NCBI GenBank assembly: GCA_951406725.2
Contig: OX597827.1
Span: 27,280,001-27,344,000, forward strand
DNA: 64,000 nucleotides
From: Octopus vulgaris
Taxonomy: Eukaryota
Direction of reading: 5' to 3'
Shown: positions 5,375 to 50,767 of the stretch, piece by piece
How positions within the stretch are numbered: the stretch's first letter is position 1
Layout of the letters: each line of letters opens with the position of its first letter
Notes under the pieces: generated by a model
The model's database searches: none
Told to the model about the DNA's origin: nothing
Seen by the model: the letters and a program-made list of their open reading frames with translations, nothing else
Program-made: the position numbers and the translations under genes

Positions 5375-5623
5375 GTGACTGCCCCGTAAGGGAATTACAC
5401 CACCGCCATTTAGCCCTAGGAAACATCTGTCGGCTTTGACACATTTTCTGTGTCCTTATATTTGCAAAGGGGAGGCAATCACCCCCGCTAGTCCCAGCTG
5501 GCGGGGGTGATTGCCTCCCCTTTGCAAATATAAGGACACAGAAAATGTGTCAAAGCCGACAGGAGACGTCGATGTTTCCTAGGGCTAAATGGCAGTGGTG
5601 TAATTCCCTTACGGGACTGTCTC
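5375..5623. repeat. ~120-bp-arm palindrome related to the 38.5 kb and 19.4 kb elements
   Basis: Arms around loop TCCCAG (5492-5497); 9-bp deletion in left arm; shares CTCCCYTT..ATAAGGACAC..GACGTCGATGTT..GGGCTAAAT. Confidence 0.88.
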
Positions 5624-6663
5624 ATTGAGTTGACAGTATACGACCACTATATCGCCCCACCACCGCTTATGTCTCTCTGAGACATTCAGAAATTCAATAT
5701 TTCTAATATTAATTTTGTATTAACAAGAAATTATTCATCCACCAATGCTGTATTGATCATTTATTACAAAACTAACAAAACCTTTAAGGGTTTGAGTTTC
5801 ACAGTCGTCGAAGACCTCGCCCCACCGTACTTTAAATCCATGTTGTGAACTAGAGAGAGAAAGGGAATGAAGTTTGGATTTGTGGTGTAAGGGATTGGGA
5901 TTAAATATTCTCTTTGGACGTTTTTGGTGTACAAATATAAGTAGGCATAGGAATGGCTGTGTGGTAAGTAGCTTGCTTACGAACCACAAGGTTCCGGGTT
6001 CAGTCCCACTGCGTGGCACCTTGGTCAAGTGTCTTCTACTATAGCCTCGGACCGACCGAAGCCTTATGAGTGGATTTGGTGTGTATATATGTATATATGT
6101 GTGTGTTTGTGCTTTTCCCTCCCAATATCGCTTGACAACCGATGCTGGTGTGTTTGCGTTCCTGTAACTTAGTGGTTCGGCATAAGAATAAGTCCTGGGG
6201 TCGGTTTACTCGACTATAAAGGCGGTGCTCCAGCTTGGCCGCAGTCAAACGACTGAAACAAGTAAAAGAGATTAAAAGAGTGCGGGTGATTGGTGTATCT
6301 CTACGATATTACTTGTCTCAGGGTGGGGATTTTGCTGGGGTAGGCTTTACGATTGTTGTAATTTTGCCGAGTCGTAGCAGTATGGCTGAATGATTTAAAA
6401 GTTCGTTTCACAGCCCGGAGGTCTCAAGTTCGATTTCGCTTCGTGGCATTTTAGATAAAATGTCATTTTCTTTAGCCTCTGGTCGGCTCATTCCTGGTGA
6501 AGGAAATCAGAAAGGCGGATACTGTACAGAAGCCTGCCAGATGGATTGCACCTGTAATTCGAACGTTACAATCTTATTACCACAAACACACACACGCGCG
6601 CTCGCACACACACATGTACAAACACTCACACAAACACTGATTCTCCTTGAGAATTACGTTAAG

Positions 6664-13394: not shown

Positions 13395-14778
13395 TTATAT
13401 ACTTATGTATATATAATACACATATATATACTTATATATATAATGTGGAATGACTCTATTATTATAGTTGGTTCCAGTCTCACCAAATTTGGTACATGGG
13501 AAAGTAATATTGATGTTGTGTGCATGTATACATACATACTTATACACACACATATATATGTATATTTTATATATATATATGTATATATATGTGTGTGTGT
13601 GTGTGTGTGTATATATATTTATACATACACACACATACATATATATTTCCACATGAGCATGTATGTCTTTACAGATGTGCATATATGCAAACATGTATGT
13701 GTACATATGTGTGTGTATGTGTGTGTACACATGTAAATATAATATATATAGAGTCACTGAAACAAAACACCAAACTAATTAATACACTTACTCTGGGCTG
13801 AACCAATTCCTTTTCCAACTTCTGCCTCTAACCTTACAAATCCTTCCACCCCCTCCACTTCTCCATCCTCTCCACCCTCCTTACCATCTCCCTCTACCCA
13901 CCACTTTTTTACTCCCCTCTCTCTAACCACACACTTCTTTTGCCCATTCCTCACCTCACACTACTCCTCTTGCCACTCTCATATACACCTTACCTCTTAC
14001 CATATCTCTCACCACCCCCATCACCTTTTTTCCACAGACACACATCCATCTATTCCATTTCTGTCCGCAAATTCCCCATCTTCATCCCTGGGTAAATTCT
14101 AGGTCCTACCCCCTCTTTTGGCCACACATTCTCCCACCACCACTACCACCTTGTCATCTTATATTTGCCTCTAGTTCAACATTTGCCGGCCAACACACAT
14201 TGCTTCTTCTGTCTCACTTCTCCCATCTCGTTCTTGTAAAACGAACTGACTTGAGGTTAAAATGAAGGACACATGCTAAATAAATAGACTTGTGGTGCGC
14301 GCGTGTGTGTTAGGTTTTGTATATTTTATGTCATTCATTTGTCCTGCCCTGCGCTGTTTTGTTTGCCTGCCTGCCCTCACTCTTACATTTATATTATTCA
14401 TTCTCAACCACTCCTATGAAGGTCTGTCGGCAACGATGCTTGACAAAATGGCTGGAAATAATCGGGCACATTCCTTTACATTGTGAGCCTGGTTCTTGCA
14501 GAGTCAGTCCTTCAGGAAATGGATGAGAACTGTGTGTGTATTTATTTACGTACGTACATTTGTGTGCGTGTGTATGTTTTATATATATGCATATATATAT
14601 ATATATATAGTTATATATATATATATATATATAGGCACATATATATATATACATATATAGGCATATATATATATATATATATATATTGATAAAACGGTAA
14701 GATAACAAAAGAAAGAAAGAGACCTCAATATTATGTAAATAGAGGAAATTTATCTATGCAATATGTTACATTACTCGG

Positions 14779-14852
14779 TAGTCAAGATAAAACTCTGAGT
14801 TTCAGATGCCGAAGTGGAAATCCACAACACCATCTCTTCGGTTATCTGGCTA
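14779..14852 (-). ncRNA. Type I hammerhead ribozyme of P1 (predicted)
   Basis: Reverse complement of 15969-16042. Confidence 0.75.
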
Positions 14853-15968
14853 TTTGAAAACGTTATGAAAAAATACCGTTAAAAATGAAGGGAAATTACT
14901 CTGTTATAACTCTGCTTTGCCTGCGTACTTATACATCGCTCGCATTTTTCGTCATAAAAATTCTATAAAAATACATAAAAATATATAAAAATATATAAAA
15001 ATATATAAAATCTTCTTGGGACATAACACAGAAAGCATGTTCTATCCGTTTTCTTTAGCGGACCAAAAACGTAACAGAAATTTAGTCACATGTGGGCATG
15101 ATCCGAAAAGCTCTGTCCTTGTATTTAGACATGTGGTAGGGTCTAAGCTGCTTTTCCAGATAAGCCATCTCTCCATGTCGCATAAACCGCACCTTCCGCT
15201 GCCGTTAGTATAGGGCTTACATCTGGCCAAAATCTTCCATTGTATGTTATAATCGACACCTTTATCTCTTAAAGACCAAATATGATTGGATAATTGTGTC
15301 GCTTTTCTTTTGTTCCAGTGCCTAAAGCTCAAAGTGTGGTTATTGAACCTGGCCTTGAAATTACCCTCTGTCAGGCCCACGTATTTCTTCGTCGAAACGG
15401 TGTCTTTAGTGGTTATAGAGTTTACGGTAGCTTCATATATGATGGTCTTGGACATGCAAGCTCCATTTAGCGGGCACAATTCTTTATTCCTGCATGAACA
15501 GCTGTTTTCTTCTTGTGTTTTTTGTATGTTATGATTGATTATGTTTTTAAAATTGGTAGTTGAACTAAAACTAATTTTTAAATTGTGTCTATTGAAGAGT
15601 TTCCTATAAGCATGGTTAACTGGAAAATGTCTATCTATGTGCGGTTTATGCGACATGGAGAGATGGCTTATCTGGAAAAGCAGCTTAGACCCTACCACAT
15701 GTCTAAATACAAGGACAGAGCTTTTCGGATCATGCCCACATGTGACTAAATTTCTGTTACGTTTTTGGTCCCCTAAAGAAAACGGATAGAACATGCTTTC
15801 TGTGTTATGTCCCAAGAAGATTTTATATATTTTTATATATTTTTATGTATTTTTATATAATTTTTATGACGAAAAATGCGAGCGATGTATAAGTACGCAG
15901 GCAAAGCAGAGTTATAACAGAGTAATTTCCCTTCATTTTTAACGGTATTTTTTCATAACGTTTTCAAA

Positions 15969-16042
15969 TAGCCAGATAACCGAAGAGATGGTGTTGTGGA
16001 TTTCCACTTCGGCATCTGAAACTCAGAGTTTTATCTTGACTA
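15969..16042 (+). ncRNA. Type I hammerhead ribozyme of P1 (predicted)
   Basis: AGATAA-CCGAAGA-GATG..CATC-T-GAAA-CTCAGAG-TT^TTATCT. Confidence 0.75.
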
Positions 16043-16065
16043 CCGAGTAATGTAACATATTGTAT

Positions 16066-17060
<995 letters not shown>

Positions 17061-19042: not shown

Positions 19043-19238
19043 GTATATGTCATAACCTGACCCCTAAAGCTGTTATTTGCTTGTCCGTCTTGTGATACCA
19101 TCATACTTATGTATATACATATGTACCTTTATAAAAGGTACTTGTTTGAATTACCAAGAGTGGATATTGTTACTTAGCTGGGTTGCATTGTCTACACACT
19201 TGACAGGAATATTGCGTACAAATACCTCTACATGGAAA

Positions 19239-19659
19239 AATCTTTATTCCAAAGTACTGTTGCTGAATATCGCTTGTTGTGAGATTTAAAGATAGTAATT
19301 TTCTAATTCAGAGATCAGTGACTAGTTGTCACTTTGAAAACTATATATTTCGAACGGGAATTTGGCAGCACCACCTCTAGCTGGACAATTATGCTGTGCT
19401 GAGGAAGGGAAATAACCCAGAAATTGTGATATGCAGATATTGTTTTCAGCTGAATGGAGGTGCTAGATTCCCTTGTTTGAAAATATAAGGACACAGATTG
19501 TGTTTTATAGCCAGCTGGAGACGATGTCTCCTGGGGATAAATTACAGTAAAATTCGTCCTAAACCAGGATTGCCATGCTATGTTGGTAAACAATCTTTAC
19601 TCCAAAGTACTGTTGCTGAATATCTCACGTTGTGAGATTTAAAAATAGTGATTTTCTAA
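19239..19659 (+). mobile_element. Retrozyme-like partial tandem (~353-nt unit, ~1.2 copies) with hammerhead
   Basis: ~68-bp direct repeats 19239-19307/19592-19659 around hammerhead 19394-19436; homologous fragment at 28536-28646 (-). Confidence 0.75.
19394..19436 (+). ncRNA. Minimal type I hammerhead ribozyme, CpG-decayed
   Basis: CTGTG-CTGAGGA-A-GGG aaataa CCC-A-GAAA-TTGTGA-TA^TGCAG. Confidence 0.75.
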
Positions 19660-20509
19660 CCTCTACACAGAGTCTTGATATTCAATATTGAAATAATATT
19701 GTTGGTGTGTGGAGATTATACTGAACTGGCAAGGTGCCTCAATTTAAGTACCTAACTCAACTGACTGTTAATTATATTTTAAATACATACATACATACAT
19801 ATCTACACACATACAGAGATATGTATATATATGTATATCATCGTTTTCATTTAACATTCTATTCTGTAACAGCATTCAGTTACGAGATCATCGGCATTGT
19901 CATCATCATTATCATTATCATCATCATCATCATTGTCACATCATCATCGTCATCATTACTATCATTATTGTTGTTGTCATCATTTTATCATATGCTTTTC
20001 ATTGTTTGCCTGGGTTTAGATGGAATTTTGTTAAGGCTGAGTTTCTCAAAGCTAGATAATTCCCTTCGTGTTGCCAACCCACCACAACAGCTACACCTGT
20101 TTCCAAGTAAAGGGTAAAATAAAAGTGATGCTTCCAAGTTAAGTAATCATATTTCTTCAAGGCCTGACATGTTTTCATGGAAGATAGGAAAGGAAGAACA
20201 TTTCTTGTATAACAAGTGACATTCGTTTACAACCATCAGGTGATGCTGAGGCAAGGAGGAGTCAGTAACACATACATACACACACACACATATACACACA
20301 CACATGATGGAACTATTGCCTACCTAATTCACTCACAAGGCTTTGATTGGCTTGAGATAAATGAGGCAAGTGGTGTGCTAAAAAGTTCCTTGCTTAAAGG
20401 GTATCATGAAAGGCCTGGCTGGAAGTTCAACCTTCCAAGTTCTTTTGCAAGGCTTAAAACACCTGAAGGATCACTGCAATAAGTTTGTGAATCTGAAATG
20501 GGAATCACC

Positions 20510-28535: not shown

Positions 28536-28646
28536 TGGAGTAAAGATTGTTTGCCAACATAGCATGGCAGTCCTGGTTTAGGACGAATGTTTCTGTAATT
28601 TAGCCCCAGGAGACATCGTCTCCAGCTGGCTAGACGACATGATCTG
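28536..28646 (-). mobile_element. Fragment of the 19.4 kb retrozyme-like family inserted in a SINE
   Basis: Reverse complement aligns by eye to ~19490-19604. Confidence 0.8.
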
Positions 28647-29740
28647 CCTTGTGTGTGTGTGTATGAACCTCTGACATCATGTGATGGGTGTAAATGAGTA
28701 CCACTGTCATCATACAAGCGGTGTTGTATTTTTATGGTGTTCTATTACAAAGATGTTTGGCCATGGAAATAGATGAAGGTTGGGGACAGGAAAGGCACCA
28801 AGCCATAGAAAATTTGACCAATGTAATCATGGAAAAGTGGGCGTGAAACTGTTAGAACGGTAGCAGAATCGTTAGATTGTTGTTGTTGTTGTCGTCGTCG
28901 TCATTAAGGCGGCAAGCTGGCAGAATCGTTAGCCGAGCAAAATACCAAGTGCCATCCTCATATTCTGAGTTTGAATTCTGCTGTGGTTGACTTTGCCTTT
29001 CATTCTTTCAGGGTTGATAGATTAAGTACAAGTTGTGTACTGGGATTGATCGAATCGAATAGTCCTCTCAAGAAAAATTTCAGGCTTTGTGCCTTAACTA
29101 GAAAGGAATATTACCTCCACCTTGGCAAAGGCAGAGGTATTGTTTTCAGTTGTGTTTGTTTGTTTGTTTGTTCAAGAACTGCTGGATGGATTTGGATGAA
29201 ACTTTCAGGGATGTTTGGCCTCATGACTGGCATGAACTGATTAGATTTTAGGATCGATCTGATTCTGGACAATGATTTTGGATTATTTTTCCGTTTGTTG
29301 GCTAAATTTTTGAGAGCAATCAAGCTCACTTTTAGTATTCTCGTTTGTGAGAACAGTTGAGTCTATTTCAGATATTCTCATTTTAAAAATCATCTCTGGT
29401 TAATCATTGAGAGGACGTTGGTGTTGCCTTGGTGGAGATTTGCAGTCTCTGAGTGCTTTTGTTATAATTATTATTTTTAAGGTGGCAAGCTGCCAGAATC
29501 ATTAACATGCCAGGCAATGCTCAACAGCATTTTGCCTGTCTTTACGTTCTGAGTTCAAATTCCACAAAAATTGACTTTATTGGCTTTCAGGGTCGATAAA
29601 ATAAAGTACAAGTTGATTACTTCCGTCAATGTAATCGACTATCTCCCTCCCCAAAATTTTAGGCCTTGTGCTTTTATCAGAAAAGATTATTATCATCATC
29701 ATTATTATCATCATCAATATTATTGTTGTTGTTGTTGTTG

Positions 29741-30823
29741 TTGTATATAAGACAGATCAATAGTTGAAGAGAATAGATATTTGGAGTTATTGATTATCAC
29801 ACACATGCACGCACATCGTTACAACAGCTAATTTCAAACTCATTAATTGAAGTCTACTACAGAGGCCTTAGTACTGTTGCAAAATTGAAACGGAAACATT
29901 AGCAAAAAGTATACATGTATGTATAAGTATATGTGTATGTATGTATGTATGTATGTGTGTAATATTTATCATTCTTTCTATTTCTCTTTTTGCATATGTA
30001 TATACATGTGTGTTTGTGTGTACAGACTCACTCACACATGCATATATGTATATCATCATCATCATCGTTTAACGTCCGTTCTCCATGCTAGCAATATATA
30101 TAAATATGCATGTATACACACATATGCATATATTTATATACATATATATATGCATATATTTATGTACATATATATATATGTTTGTGTATATGTGTATGTA
30201 TAGGTGTGAAGCATTTATTTATCACAGTTTCTATGTATGTGCATGTACGTAATACACGCACATGCACATATATACACACACATACATGAACACACACATA
30301 TACACACATATACACTCACACACACACATATACACTCATGCACACACACACATGCACACATATATATACCCACACATACACACATATATATACACACACA
30401 TATAAACACACACATACATACACATATGTACAAAACTACATATATAAACAAGCACATGTACAAATATGCACACACACACACACACACTAATATTTCTCAT
30501 GTCAAATTATATACAAAAACAATTTCACATTATATGGAAGGATTACTCAATGGTATTTTGTAGAGTAGAAGATTTTTAAACTTCGAAGTCACTATCAAAC
30601 ATTTTCTAGTAAAATTTGAATACATACATACATAAATACATACATACATGTATATTTTTTGCTAATGCTTCTGTTTCAATTTTGCAACAGTGCTAAGGCC
30701 TCTGTAGTAGACTTCAATTAATGAGTTTGAAATTAGCTGCTGTAACGATGTGCGTGCATGTGTGTGATAATCAATAACTCCTAATATCTATTCTCTTCAA
30801 CTATTGATCTGTCTTATATACAA
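29741..30823. repeat. Inverted repeat, ~180-bp arms around microsatellite-rich spacer
   Basis: 29741-29923 is the reverse complement of ~30640-30823 with few mismatches. Confidence 0.85.
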
Positions 30824-30865
30824 TCATAATACCAGGTGTTATACATGGATGTCTCTCTCCCTTCC

Positions 30866-31746: not shown

Positions 31747-32954
31747 CACATATGAGTTCTCCAAACATCTTAGTGGGTGAGGCTACACTCATGAAGTATC
31801 GGAGATAATTTTATAAAAAGCAAATTCAGGTTGTAAGCGGACTTCCAAAGTTCTTTAATGATGATGCACAGTCTTATCACAGGTTTTAAAAAGCTTATTA
31901 GCTTCACAGAGAAGATGAATCAATCCATAATGTAGGTGCAAATTTCCAGAGATATGAGGAGATATTTCATACTCACAGACGATGAATCTATCCATGATTA
32001 ATCCACAATGAGGTGGGTATAATTTCATGCTATATGATAAGATACTTGTCACACTACTGTTCCCTTCACAAAACTGCTATGTTAGAATTTCTAAAAGCTG
32101 AAGGAATTTTGTGGAGCAAAGAAAAGAAAAGAAAAAAAGAAAAGAAAGAAAGAAAAAGAAAAAGAAGAGGAGGAAAAAAATAAAAAACGCCCACATAGAG
32201 TATACTGGGATAACTAAGAGGGAAGGGGTCGCAGGTATCCCCCTACACAGAAAAGTCTCTCTCTGTGGAGACGGGCAGACTGGCTTAGAATTTGAAGGAA
32301 TCTAAGAATTATAAAGGAGAACATTATTTTTGACCAGTATACAGCTACTAATTGCCAAGGAGCTAAAGCAGATATGAGAATTTAAAGAGAACAGGGGAAG
32401 GGATAGAGGGGTCAAAGGCTATCATTAGAGGGAAATACATTAAGAGAAATAAGTACAATACTAGCAGGAGGTTATTTAATTAATTTATTTATTATTGTTA
32501 TTGTTTATATTGTTGTTACTGTCTATACATTGACAGACTGTAGGTCTATACTTAGAGGTCATTTACAAGGTGTGAGAGAATTGCTTATCATATTGAAATT
32601 TCTTATACTACTTTTAAGGGAGTAGCATTACTTATTTAACTTTGTAATAGAATTATGAAGCAATAGTAACTTATTTTATTTAAGTTGTGTTACCTAAATT
32701 AGATTAAAATTAGATTAACTATAAAGTCAATTAAAACTTTATTTAAGCTTTATTTAAGCAACGTACAAATACTATTTGTTTCTTTATGTTCAAAATCAGG
32801 TGCAGTTAGAAAGAAAGAGATAACCATAGTGTAAGAGCCCGCAGTTATCTATTTAAAAAAATATATTAAAGTTTTGCTTTACTAGTAAGAACAAGATAGA
32901 TCTATCTCCTTATGATTATTCTATACGGTTATTTATTTAAAATATTTTAGAGTC

Positions 32955-33367
32955 TTCATTTTTGCGTGAATACAAAATTGACCCAGTTCTATATGGTTAT
33001 TTAACAAATTCCTATTTTTTCTATGCATTAGAATTTCATACGTCTCCATGGAGCAGAGTTGGCAACCAACCCTGTTATTTTTATAAGGCATTGCTCTTCT
33101 AACTATTTCTCAATTAAGGTTATATTTAATATTATTATTTTTGAGTTCCCAGATATTACTTGAAAGTGTGGTGGTACCAGCTTTATGACGTAACTGAAAA
33201 GATGAGATATGATTGCTAATTCTTTTCTTAAAATTTACAGTACGACCAATATAAAAAAATTTATTCTCAGTAGTTATGGTACATTTATAGATTACATTAC
33301 TTGCCCCGCATAGACCAGGTGCCGGGCATTTTGAGCTAATTCTACAATTACACATAGGGGGGGTCAT
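32955..33367 (-). pseudogene. PLE GIY-YIG endonuclease remnant
   Basis: Motif-by-motif similarity to the C-terminus of the 34314 ORF; in-frame TGA where that ORF has W (IQWKIL). Confidence 0.85.
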
Positions 33368-34124: not shown

Positions 34125-34313
34125 TTTGAAAACGTTATGAAAAAATACCGTTAAAAATGAAGGGAAATTACTCTGTTATAACTCTGCTTTGCCTGCGTAC
34201 TTATACATCGCTCGCATTTTTCGTCATAAAAATTATATAAAAATACATAAAAAAATATAAAAATATATAAAAATATATAAAATCTTCTTGGGACATAACA
34301 CAGAAAGCATGTT

Positions 34314-35832
34314 CTATCCGTTTTCTTTAGGGGACCAAAAACGTAACAGAAATTTAGTCACATGTGGGCATGATCCGAAAAGCTCTGTTCTTGTATTTAG
34401 ACATGTGGTAGGGTCTAAGCTGCTTTTCCAGATAAGCCATCTCTCCATGTCGCATAAACCGCACCTTCCGCTGCCGTTAGTATAGGGCTTACATCTGGCC
34501 AAAATCTTCCATTGTATGTTATAATCGACACCTTTATCTCTTAAAGACCAAATATGATTGGATAATTGTGTCGCTTTTCTTTTGTTCCAGTGCCTAAAGC
34601 TCAAAGTGTGGTTATTGAACCTGGCCTTGAAATTACCCTCTGTCAGGCCCACGTATTTCTTCGTCGAAACGGTGTCTTTAGTGGTTATAGAGTTTACGGT
34701 AGCTTCATATATGATGGTCTTGGACATGCAAGCTCCATTTAGCGGGCACAATTCTTTATTCCTGCATGAACAGCTGTTTTCTTCTTGTGTTTTTTGTATG
34801 TTATGATTGATTATGTTTTTAAAATTTGTAGTTGAACTAAAACTAATTTTTAAATTGTGTCTATTGAAGAGTTTCCTATAAGCATGGTTAACTGGAAAAT
34901 GTCTATCTATCAGTGCTAGGAAATATTTACCTATATTGAAGGCCACCTCGGGTGAGTAAGGGGGCGTAAACCAGATGACCTTCCTATTTCTATTATTCCT
35001 TTTCCTTATTGTTGGGCTGGTGATAGGTGTATATTTTATTTTTTCGCTAAAACCACTATCTTTTAAAGCTTTATTATAAACTGGGGCAACGCTATTGAAG
35101 ATGTCCTCATTAGATGAGAGGCTAGAAATCCTCTTACTAATATTTTTAACTAAATTTTTGAATACTATAGGGGGATGGCATGAACCTACATTAATATAAC
35201 TTAGTCTATCATTGGGCTTCCTATAAGGCTTATAAATATTATTATTAAGATCTAAGGAAACGTCTAAGAAATTGACAACCGTCAGGTTAGTGTCTATAGT
35301 TATACTAAGTCCGAAGTGTTTCATTAACTGGATAATATCCTTCCTAAAACGATCTTGTGCTGGTCCATTTGTATTAGCTGTTAAGGCGAGGGCATCATCT
35401 TTGTAGATGGCGAAATGTACGTTAGGGAATGTCTTACTGAAGGTATCTAGGAGAAAGAGTCCAATTAGAACACAGATGCCTGCCCCATCATATGAACCCA
35501 TGCTCACATCGAAAGCGCCCTCCGTGTCGGTGTTTTTTATCCACTTTGCATTCTCACTGAAAAGTAATGTCTTTCTAGCATGGAAGATTATATCCTTATC
35601 ATTGGTACTAATTTCTATGAAGTCACTAGCGAAGATTAGGGCTTTATCTAGCAGTTCTTTAGAGATAGAGGCATAAAAATCAACAATATCGAATTGTGTA
35701 AACCTCGCTTTTTTCTTATTCTTAATAGCTTTAAACCAGTCTACGACTTCTATACTATTGGACCATTGCACTAGCCTAGTATCGGTCTTAATTTTCGTAT
35801 TTATTTTATCTAAAATTTCTTTGCTAATAATC

Positions 35833-38514: not shown

Positions 38515-38526
38515 TATATATATATA

Positions 38527-38953
38527 GCAATAATAATTCTCTAAAAGAGATATAGACAGTAACTGCTCGATAACATAAGGGACTAAAGCCATCTGAATAT
38601 GGCTAGGGACAGGGCAGGGTGGTGGGGGTGTTACTGTTGCATTTAGCCCCAGGCGAACATCGACGTCACCAGAAAGGCTCGACACCGTCACGGTGTCCTT
38701 ATCCTGCAAAGGGAGGTAATTCCCCGATGAAGCGGAAACCACACGCCGACGATAGGCAATACACCTTGAAACCATGGTCCGTGTGTGGTTTCCGCTTCAT
38801 CGGGGAATTACCTCCCTTTGCAGGATAAGGACACCGTGACGGTGTCGAGCCTTTCTGGTGACGTCGATGTTCGCCTGGGGCTAAATGCAACAGTAACACC
38901 CCCACCACCCTGCCCTGTCCCTAGCCATATTCAGATGGCTTTAGTCCCTTATG

Positions 38954-38957
<4 letters not shown>
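38527..38957. mobile_element. Fold-back element in (TA)n whose loop is a hammerhead core
   Basis: Near-perfect arms 38570-38745/38780-38957; left end 43 nt longer. Confidence 0.9.
38740..38785 (+). ncRNA. Minimal type I hammerhead ribozyme (predicted)
   Basis: CACACG-CCGACGA-T-AGG caataca CCT-T-GAAA-CCATGG-TC^CGTGTG. Confidence 0.85.
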
Positions 38958-45859: not shown

Positions 45860-46078
45860 TGTGTGTGTGTATATATTATTTATTATTCATCGCACACATG
45901 AACTTCCACATAGTTTCCTTCTACCAAATTATTTCACAAAGTTTTTAGTTGCCTCAGGGCTGTAGTAGAAAAGACTTGCCCAAGCTGCTGTGCAGTGGGA
46001 CTGAATCTGAGGCCACATGGTTAGGAAGTAAAGTTCCTATACCCCCCACACACATACATACATGTATATATGTACATA

Positions 46079-46134
<56 letters not shown>

Positions 46135-46248
46135 ATATTTCGGAATGGTCATTTTGCCAGTTTAGCCAATAAAAACACATGCACTATATATTTGGTGTTA
46201 CTTTGCTTCAGTGTTATTTATTTTTTACATTAATCTTAATCTTATTTC

Positions 46249-46292
46249 GGCCAGAGTTCTTTCGTCACACTCCTGTGACTGCATCAGTGGTC
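46249..46292 (-). ncRNA. Variant minimal hammerhead (mirror copy)
   Basis: Reverse complement of 47281-47324 with three substitutions outside the core. Confidence 0.6.
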
Positions 46293-46895
46293 CTTTGCTT
46301 TCTTCTTTCTTATTTGTGTGTCTCTCAATACTAACCGTCAGCCATTTTGTATTTCTATTGTCTGTGTCTTCATTTGCGCATGCATATATCTCTATGTGCG
46401 TCTATGTTTAGTTAGTGTGTGTGTGTGTGAGAGGGAATGCCTGTAATATTTGTATCTTCTGTTTATATACGTTCGTGCAATTTGTTTTTGTTTATTCTTA
46501 TTTGCTCTTTCATTCCTTAAGTCTGGATTTTTAATTTAAGGAAGGAAAGAGCTCATCGATTCTATACCAACACGCCGAGCAGGAACACGGGGCTCAATCA
46601 ACAACATAGAAATTAAAATCTTGTCCACACATAGAACAGACGCAACAATCAGACAAATTACGGAAGCTACACACATAATAGAAGATAAACCTAGCCTGAA
46701 TAGGAAACTGGAATGGAACACTAGCACACACCACAACATATGACAGAAGAGGTTACAATATAAACAAAACTGAAAACATAATAAAATAAAATACACAGAT
46801 AAATAAACAAATGGAAGTAAATAACTATATACATTTTTAAAAAATTTATTATTTTTTTAATTTTAAGATATTTTTAAATTTAAAAATTATTATTA

Positions 46896-46938
<43 letters not shown>

Positions 46939-47007
46939 TAGTATTGTTGTTATACATACATACAAGCATACATAATAATAATAATAATGATAATAATAGT
47001 GATAATA

Positions 47008-47050
<43 letters not shown>

Positions 47051-47280
47051 GTGGACGTAAACACATGAACAAAATAAGAATAAACAAAAAGAAATTACAC
47101 GAACGTATATAAACAGAAGATACAAATATTACAGGCATTCCCCCTCCCACACACACACTAACTAAACATAGACGCACATAGAGATATATGCATGCGCAAA
47201 TGAAGACACAGACAATAGAAATACAAAATGGCTGACGGTTAGTATCGAGAGACACACAAATAAGAAAGAAGAAAGCAAAG

Positions 47281-47324
47281 GACCACTGATGCGGTCACAG
47301 GAGCGTGACGAAAGAACTCTGGCT
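47281..47324 (+). ncRNA. Variant minimal hammerhead (CUGAUGC core)
   Basis: CCA-CTGATGC-G-GTCAC aggagc GTGAC-GAAA-GAAC-TC^TGG. Confidence 0.6.
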
Positions 47325-47443
47325 GAAATAAGATTAAGATTAATGTAAAAAATAAATAACACTGAAGCAAAGTAACACCAAATATATAGTGCATGTGTTT
47401 TTATTGGCTAAACTGGCAAAATGACCATTCCGAAATATAACAA

Positions 47444-47474
<31 letters not shown>

Positions 47475-47475
47475 A

Positions 47476-47528
<53 letters not shown>

Positions 47529-48729: not shown

Positions 48730-49190
48730 TCTATCTGTCGTGTTTTGTCTACTGGAAAAACTGTCAACCACCTGTCTTCAGGATTCTTTCTTCTGCATTG
48801 CTCTTGGCAGGTCGCATTTCAGTAGACCAGTGTCTTCTTCACCCAGTTCATCAATAAATGCCCTCGGATGTTTTCTGTGCAGTGGTTCCCGCATATGCAT
48901 TTCATTCAATAATTTTGTCCTTGCTATGAAATCAGCATCCACAGAATCTCAGGCTTTGTTCCTTTGTGATGGAGGTAACTCTTGGGAGATTACCATCAAG
49001 AACCTTGTTTGTTATATGTGAGACTGTCATTTGAAGTTAAGTCCTGCTCTCAGCATTCTTATGTATGTTTCATTGAGTTTTCTTTCCTCTTTCCACTGCC
49101 TTAGTCAGATTCTGTGTAGCATAACAGCATAATTTCTATTGATGCTTGCAAGAAGCATATCTAAGGAGTTGCCTTCCAAATGGTGTCTAA
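48730..49190 (-). pseudogene. Degraded RTE-like LINE ORF2 C-terminus
   Basis: KLNETYIRMLRAGLNFK*QSHI..NKVL.GNLPRVT and IDEL..DTG...DLPRAM, with stops and frameshifts. Confidence 0.6.
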
Positions 49191-49193
49191 ATA

Positions 49194-50086
49194 CAGGGTG
49201 TCCCAAAAGTCACTGATGGATTTCAATTTTTAATAACTTCCTTAACTTTACAAAGAAATTCATGAAATTTTGGTACAATATAAAGGACATAATGGAAATT
49301 AATATGTACAAGTCAAATTATGCAACACCACTACATCACAAATGAAAAATGACATCGCTGAAATAGCAACTGTTTTCGGCTTCACATGCCACTGCTCTTT
49401 CCAAAATTTGCACCACAACACCCTCAAGAATTTCAGACCCCACTTCTCTGATTTCTCTATTGATGTTCTCCTTCAGTTGCACCAGGGTTTCCAGTTTGTT
49501 GACGTAAACTCTCTCTTTCAGGAACTCCCACAAGAAAACAATCAGAGCTAGTCAAGTTTGTGGAACATGAAAGCCCTTTAAATTAGACCCCATGCATGGT
49601 TCCAGCAAGATGAGGAAATTGCTCATACGACAAGAGAAACAATGCAGTTGTTACGGAAGTGCTTTGGAGAGAATAATCTCCTGTTACGGCAATGTCAACT
49701 GGCCTTTACGTTCCCCAGACTTAACTAGCTCGGATTTTTTCTTGTGAGGGATACCTGCCTAAGAGAGAGGGTTTATGTCAACAAACCAGAGACCCTGGTG
49801 CAACTGAAGGAGAACATCAATAGAGAAACCAGAGAAGTGAGATCTGAAACTCTTGAGGGTGTTATGGTGCAAATTTTGGAAAGAGCACGGGCATGCAAAG
49901 CTGAAAATGACTGCCATTTAAGTGATGTAATTTTTCATAAGTGATGTAGTGGTGTTGCATAGTTTGACTTGTGCATATTAATTTCCATTATGTCTTTTAT
50001 ATTGTATCAAAATTTCATGTATTTATTTGTAAAGTTAAGGAAGTTATTAAAAATAGAAACCCATCAGTGACTTTTGGGACACCCTG
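49194..50086. mobile_element. Tc1/mariner derivative made of two inverted right ends
   Basis: TA-CAGGGTGTCCCAAAAGTCACTGATGG ... CCATCAGTGACTTTTGGGACACCCTG-TA; ~360-bp arms; transposase remnant WFQQD...WPLRSPDL..SDFFL...KERVYVNKP from 49597. Confidence 0.92.
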
Positions 50087-50767
50087 TATTAGTGTCAATT
50101 TTAGTTGGGTTTTTTTTTCTTTGTTAAGTCTATGGATGGTAGTGGGAGATAATTGTGGACTTCTTTTCACCCTGTAGGACTTCGTTAGCAAATATACAAT
50201 AATGCAGGCCTTCACTCACTTAATTTGTTGAACCATTAGTGATTGAGTTTGTTAAGTAATTAATGTAGAAAAATGTCAATGAACAAATTTTGAAAAGAAA
50301 TAATCTGCATGACATCTGATCATTTACCAAAATGTTGATATAATTATAATATAAAATATTCCAATTACAAAATAAGATTCGATATGCAAGAAAAGTATGA
50401 AAATATATATATTCACTGATGACCGATATTGTTGTTTCCAATGAAATGTATGGGTAGACAATTCAAGACATGTCACACACTGATGAATCAACTGTGTGAA
50501 ACCCACTAAAATTTGTCTGGGTTTTGGTGATATTTGTCAGTGACAAATACTCTTTTACTTTTTTACTTGTTTCAGTCATTTGATTGTGGCCATGCAGGAG
50601 CACCATCTTTAGTCAAGCAAATCAATCCTAGGACTTATTTTTTGTAAGCCTAGTTCTATTCTATCAGTCTCTTTTGCCGAACCGCTAAGTTATGGGGACA
50701 TAGACACACCAGCATTGGTTGTCAGGCAATGTTGCGGGGACAAACACAAAGACAGACAGACAGACAG

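Follow-up and report, generated by a model that had tools for sequence, protein, structure and literature searches.

Metazoan non-LTR retrozymes are non-coding tandem units of ~350–360 nt that carry a type I hammerhead ribozyme with a short palindromic helix III and co-occur with Penelope-like elements (PMC7229834; bioRxiv 10.64898/2026.07.22.740005). Animal hammerheads have been described with a palindromic helix III (PMC4209133). Both retrozyme papers, of 2020 and 2026, suggest that retrozymes are driven by Penelope-like elements, and the consulted parts of both name no RNA signal for this process and describe no conserved RNA module besides the ribozyme (PMC7229834; bioRxiv 10.64898/2026.07.22.740005). 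How animal retrozymes pick up a reverse transcriptase (RT) is an open question.

A single core kept over many non-autonomous families is familiar from the central conserved domains of SINEs and from the Alu domain, and it is considered to help such families capture the RT of another element. Telomerase RNA carries domains that bind TERT. The RT of Penelope-like elements is described as the sister of TERT (PMC8557442). In the Poseidon element of Anolis (PAc), according to the consulted sections of one study, RT starts at two internal sites, which gives rise to a tail, and the required RNA spans from near the hammerhead to just beyond both start sites; these sections bracket a binding region only (PMC11167929).

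Here we describe a module of ~55 nt in repeats of Octopus vulgaris that resemble these systems, including copies in a window, the whole 64,000-nucleotide stretch of DNA that was analyzed. The octopus repeats match metazoan retrozymes in unit length, non-coding tandem organization, hammerhead type, helix III, and co-occurrence with Penelope-like elements; they differ in having no pLTR relative among the families sampled, and their self-cleavage and circles are putative. They share with PAc an upstream hammerhead, two 3′ initiation sites with a tail, and AT-rich targets, but the PAc region is the start of the ORF of an autonomous element, with its binding motif only bracketed, whereas the octopus region is non-coding, and the two 3′ sites are spaced by 30–40 nt in PAc and by about 44–60 nt in the octopus retrozymes (comparison with the consulted part of PMC11167929). 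Unlike SINEs, the octopus repeats have neither a tRNA head nor a B-box.

Results

An initial annotation of the window had reported four sites of an unrecognized structured RNA, shared by three families with dissimilar flanks. The module layout is present at 38825–38887 (+), 5530–5591 (+), and 19485–19543 (+), and partially at 28597–28652 (−). All four reported sites hold up, with scores of 50–64 bits by a covariance model, but two inverted twins had been overlooked, at 38640–38702 (−) and 5407–5459 (−). With these twins, which emerged from a scan and from comparison of the window with itself, the window contains six module sites (47–64 bits), two of the sites having inverted twins. The layout proposed in the annotation is present at the sites given, although its ATAAG element varies in distant lineages. 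The copy at 19485 reads GGGGATAAAT, and its P3 is decayed. The module occurs far above chance frequency in the 2.8-Gb genome, with 3,246 exact matches (1,632 + 1,614) to a strict pattern, a lower bound on copy number, and none to the reversed control, and it is kept in lineages whose divergence ranges between roughly 1% and 20%. A metagenome scan gave 22 pattern matches, all of which scored 12.6 bits or less by the model and were put down to chance. Contigs of runs labeled as other organisms contain these repeats, and C-like copies are present in two runs from an organism with next to none of the lineage A words.

The repeats that carry the module are Penelope-like non-autonomous retrozymes of ~350–360 nt, often in tandem, and each lineage has a type I hammerhead upstream of the module, together with 5′ copies in inverted orientation and two sites at which 3′ ends fall. 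The non-coding units stand in tandem as 360-nt arrays in lineage A (the 38795 sequence), as 362-nt arrays in the young lineage D, and as dimers of the 351–353-nt units to which the 5505 and 19462 sequences belong. The lineage A arrays consist of copies that are 99–100% identical, and they often have an inverted 5′-truncated arm. More distant lineages (D, E, F, G, and H) were recovered by profile searches of locus flanks. Alignment showed whole monomers to be collinear between lineages from the hammerhead through the 3′ end, so the flanks are homologous and the supposed three families are lineages within a single group. As an element, the host of the module is of an already known kind, the non-LTR retrozyme.

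The lineage A insertion in the window has two arms. The forward arm (38706–38957, +, with an approximate left edge) reaches as far as 3′ site 1, 75 nt past P3, where (AT)n follows; the inverted 5′ arm (38526–38753, −, module at 38640–38702) stops at the "tail" end, 3′ site 2, so that the right end of the insertion is site 1 and the left end is site 2. The lineage B copy (5495–5707, +, module at 5530–5591) is 5′-truncated, has lost its hammerhead, and ends at site 2; the module of its inverted arm (5377–5490, −) lies at 5407–5459 and has a deletion in P4. Lineage C is represented by a copy of about 1.2 monomers (19236–19660, +, hammerhead core at 19399, module at 19485–19543) and by a copy that is truncated inside P2 and ends near site 1 (28536–28652, −).

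The lineage A hammerhead (38738–38788, +) was read from the sequence and escaped detection by Rfam; the same layout recurs in the other lineages. Its core, CCGACGA, is at 38746 and is a U4C variant, GAAA is at 38768–38771, the palindromic helix III is at 38772–38777, and the predicted cut follows 38779. The core, helix II, GAAA, and palindromic helix III were read by eye in lineages A–H, and in D and D2 a U3-A8 pair replaces C3-G8. Rfam covariance models missed these hammerheads apart from one match with E = 0.28. The annotation had placed a hammerhead upstream of the module in two families; in all four lineages measured the hammerhead core lies 84–91 nt ahead of the first module stem, and the window B copy is merely 5′-truncated. 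As one of nine predicted retrozyme elements was cleaved in vitro in the consulted part of the 2026 preprint (bioRxiv 10.64898/2026.07.22.740005), self-cleavage cannot be assumed here. Contigs of 390 nt (360 + 30) in three of four runs, the RNA status of which is a guess, fit a circle or a tandem array alike. As separate observations, non-standard hammerhead cores sit in young, near-identical lineages (window 38746–38752 and loci L230 and L109), and a different coding repeat fragment is inserted in a B dimer, inside the hammerhead region (L171:2000–3400).

Folding of 22 natural copies by RNAalifold, unguided, gave two adjacent hairpins: P2, of 6 bp, and P3 (4 bp), which continues through an internal loop into P4 (5 bp). 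In the forward arm of lineage A these are at 38830–38846 (+) and, with a following AAA, at 38848–38885 (+). The YTCCCYT stretch upstream is the 3′ strand of a predicted hairpin, P1 (38802–38816, +), and downstream, single-sequence folds and a helix scan predict the 5′ strand of a long-range stem, P5, and a hairpin, P7 (38890–38941, +), both upstream of 3′ site 1. A multi-stem junction formed by pairing of AGCC with GGCT, as had been suggested, was not recovered by RNAalifold; the pair closes the inner hairpin only, through the internal loop, and leaves the GACAC hairpin outside. The working strand was assigned from the hammerhead orientation and the 3′ ends; counts of G-U versus A-C (6 versus 4) were non-decisive. 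Single-sequence folding support was modest (z = −0.84, −2.05, and −2.89).

Comparison of the copies bears out the proposal of a conserved structured RNA with pairing-consistent variation. Over 16 pairs in 22 copies (352 cells; two pairs were added by hand to the RNAalifold fold), 93.8% of cells pair, compared with 32–48% in slid controls, and double changes occur at 9 of the 16 pairs. The covariation score was reached by none of 500 shuffles, and because such shuffling ignores the relatedness of the copies, parsimony and lineage-majority checks were added. With the paired columns left out of tree building, parsimony required at least 23 Watson-Crick pair switches, a figure partly inflated by the register of P4. 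Among the nine lineages with at least five copies each (seven groups of one to three copies were excluded), lineage-majority pairs comprised 133 Watson-Crick and 6 G-U pairs in 144 cells, a count that underestimates pairing, as the P3 register of row A is shifted. Single-copy departures within lineages, in contrast, were non-Watson-Crick in 266 of 320 cases. The fold is under selection, as changes between lineages keep the pairs and decay within families mostly breaks them.

These counts bear on the possibility that the module acts at the DNA level as a promoter, or is no more than inherited sequence, with incidental hairpins in either case. Ancestry is common to all lineages, and in some of them AT-rich, TATA-like letters precede the module. 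The contrast between double changes separating lineages and pair-breaking decay inside them, the lack of a B-box and a tRNA head, and the location of the TATA-like words in the spacer upstream of the hammerhead argue against this explanation, to which we give hardly any credence. Full-length homology, which had been named as a sign of simple neutral descent, does extend over the whole monomer, but the descent is not neutral, since the pairs are kept between lineages. No tRNA gene was found in six of six loci and no B-box in four of four monomers, and identity as a Pol III-transcribed or tRNA-derived SINE was rejected; several T4 runs occur in each of the four monomers. A splice-acceptor reading of the pyrimidine run was also discarded, as the AG is lost in D and G.

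Four unpaired bases (G, U, G, and A) are the same in every one of the 21 rows of alignment A4 (the 22-row alignment A3 minus one decayed copy), and the first loop base of P2 is G in all 21. The internal loop between P3 and P4 (AG-C-U over U-G-G) contains a C-G pair plus a U-U opposition. Among seven segments compared, conservation is highest in the module (identity 0.68 versus 0.37–0.66), in a ranking biased toward it by the use of module-based queries to find the lineages. In circular folds of four natural monomers, P2 forms a separate arm of a branched structure, and P3-P4 does likewise in three of the four. Such arms are what would be expected if the module were a folding scaffold that separates the hammerhead from the initiation domain and has no specific ligand, but the sequence, including the unpaired bases, is conserved more tightly than a scaffold requires, and we regard this role as improbable.

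Twister, pistol, and HDV-like ribozymes are built on a conserved core with one or two pseudoknots surrounding it. No covarying pseudoknot was detected within the module by a helix scan of 22 rows, which has limited power, leaving these folds unsupported. SECIS elements have a UGA/GA non-Watson-Crick quartet, an AAR loop, and upstream coding sequence; the module has a different internal loop, and its monomer is non-coding. The annotation had likewise found no fit to any of these folds, and its impression that the module is unfamiliar agrees with Rfam, which gave no match at the gathering score and, in scans by E-value, weak or palindrome-driven matches. The silence of Rfam is weak evidence, because Rfam also misses the hammerheads. 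We found no description of the module in the literature, a comparison to which the supplements of retrozyme papers and Dfam/Repbase, which could list these repeats, are external; the consulted text of PMC13282606 and one of its supplements mention neither hammerhead, ribozyme, nor retrozyme. The module is a real conserved RNA structure and apparently one so far undescribed, although the repeats may be catalogued under another name.

A second catalytic RNA, for cleavage or ligation, had also been proposed. Four invariant unpaired positions in 21 of 21 rows and the failure of known folds to fit would suit a new ribozyme, but there is no covarying pseudoknot, cleavage is already provided by the hammerhead, and the 5′ ends of copies are scattered, with no pile-up in the module in a sample that favored copies including it. 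Catalysis is thus very unlikely. The 5′ ends often lie past the hammerhead cut site, a spread that fits an uncut multimer or circle as template.

The 3′ ends of copies ending within 200 nt, with distances measured after P3, fall into two clusters, 60–75 and 107–128 nt past the module, in lineages A, B, B2, C, D, and G. The first and second clusters contain 14 (at 70–75) and 19 (at 115–119) of 33 copies in A, 15 (62–67) and 19 (119–124) of 41 in B, 29 (62–71) and 27 (115–128) of 66 in C, 7 (65–68) and 6 (128) of 14 in D, and 4 and 9 of 15 in G. Lineage E shows mainly the second cluster, probably through query bias. Lineage H lacks P6, and its first cluster is earlier, at 41–62; from this shift, the position of site 1 seems to follow the P7/P5 structure, which lies nearer to it. 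In young A and D copies the sequence continues into (AT)n. The repeats thus have both the two 3′ ends (tail) and the inverted 5′-truncated copies of Penelope-like mobilization. Three of four autonomous Penelope-like families in the same genome show the two-end pattern (13 + 5 of 20, 17 + 19 of 41, and 11 + 9 of 31), and the fourth has one main 3′ end. By analogy, the two clusters match the tail and the two internal sites of RT initiation in PAc.

Penelope-like elements were sampled, incompletely, by GIY-YIG family, protein, and codon-pattern searches, and full-length copies were compared. The search returned several families. In four young families represented by full-length elements, neither the terminal repeats nor the 5′ regions contained a module by the covariance model, nor was one present beside the other sampled endonuclease matches, and strong matches in autonomous loci proved to be separate retrozyme insertions. 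No part of the monomer has an autonomous partner among the sampled families, and no similarity to a pLTR was found. A likeness of the downstream region to the end of the 1312-aa family was no better than that of shuffled sequences, and one endonuclease ORF ended in apparent hammerhead matches that proved to be artifacts of the pattern. One of the young elements (L165; G000:C16:20834500–20842500), which we take to be Neptune-like, contains an RT-GIY-YIG frame of 781 aa. Its promoter repeats, CCAAT/CRE-like, are in tandem, and a hammerhead with the U3-A8 variation precedes its 3′ ends by a short distance. Three more young families (L319, L321, and L323) have frames of 717, 1312, and 1200 aa and also contain hammerheads. 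The window itself contains a copy of the 717-aa family (about 34200–35320, −) and what is left of an older endonuclease, a broken fragment from a related Penelope-like element (32939–33352, −).

Discussion

The position of the module makes a role in RT recognition plausible. Its place after the hammerhead is fixed, compensatory changes separate the lineages, and the copies end in Penelope-like clusters; our leading, still tentative, reading is that it may be a docking site at which a non-coding RNA captures a Penelope-like RT-endonuclease in trans. Tandem arrays would be transcribed, cut by the hammerhead, and perhaps circularized, and the RT-endonuclease would bind at the module, nick AT-rich DNA, and begin copying at one of the two internal sites. 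Continuation of the RT through further monomers would yield tandem and inverted copies, and new lineages would be founded only by RNAs with an intact module. Counting against docking, three of the four autonomous families make two-site ends without the module, and site 1 seems to follow P7/P5, which is nearer. The absence of the module from the sampled autonomous elements also makes it less likely that it simply imitates the binding site of a partner, although the partner may lie among elements outside the sample.

Because no sampled autonomous element has the module, binding of a host protein is a close rival, one that we consider somewhat unlikely. Such a protein might stabilize, circularize, or localize the RNA, or hold the hammerhead shut in the circle, while the RT reads P5–P9 downstream. 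Absence from autonomous elements is what would be expected of a device that only a non-coding RNA needs, and the fixed spacing to the hammerhead (84–91 nt) and the invariant unpaired G, U, G, and A would suit a bound protein. The consulted part of one paper argues for a host ligase as the enzyme closing retrozyme circles and for something besides self-pairing as the block on the ribozyme in them (PMC7229834). Against this, there is no candidate protein and no match to known host-binding motifs in Rfam, and the 390-nt contigs fit a tandem array as well as a circle.

A bolder form of the docking reading, which we hold to be doubtful, is that retrozymes possess a structured RT-capture domain of their own, absent from the autonomous elements that they parasitize, which like an anchor of telomerase RNA would bind the Penelope-like RT and present an internal start site within a long-range stem. 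The analogy is that in telomerase RNA, as in the predicted fold of the monomer, a long-range stem encloses a single-stranded start site, next to which lie hairpins with an internal loop; there is no sequence or Rfam similarity, and the monomer would be copied through, whereas the telomerase template is repeated. If the reading were true, the domain would be the first cis signal defined for retrozyme mobilization in animals, and gene insertion based on Penelope would gain a portable handle. Lying between the ribozyme and the two start sites, the module is a small target for mutation, and it makes the question of RT pick-up by animal retrozymes directly testable.

Several minor features of the repeats and of the window were also noted. 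A weak alternative 3-bp pairing, of A3 columns 60–62 with 217–219, would join the start of P2 to a downstream strand and has one matched change in lineage E. A self-complementary word of 6–8 nt, differing in its letters, follows P1 just 5′ of the module in most lineages (window 5521–5528) and could be a site of dimerization or a small hairpin. A TATA-like word in the spacer upstream of the hammerhead in four of four monomers (L024, L087, L230, and L044) is a candidate internal Pol II promoter. Four long inverted-repeat pairs in the window (46048–47525, 14748–16073, 29730–30834, and 49190–50090), 89–99% complementary, are possibly further inverted insertions of the Penelope type.
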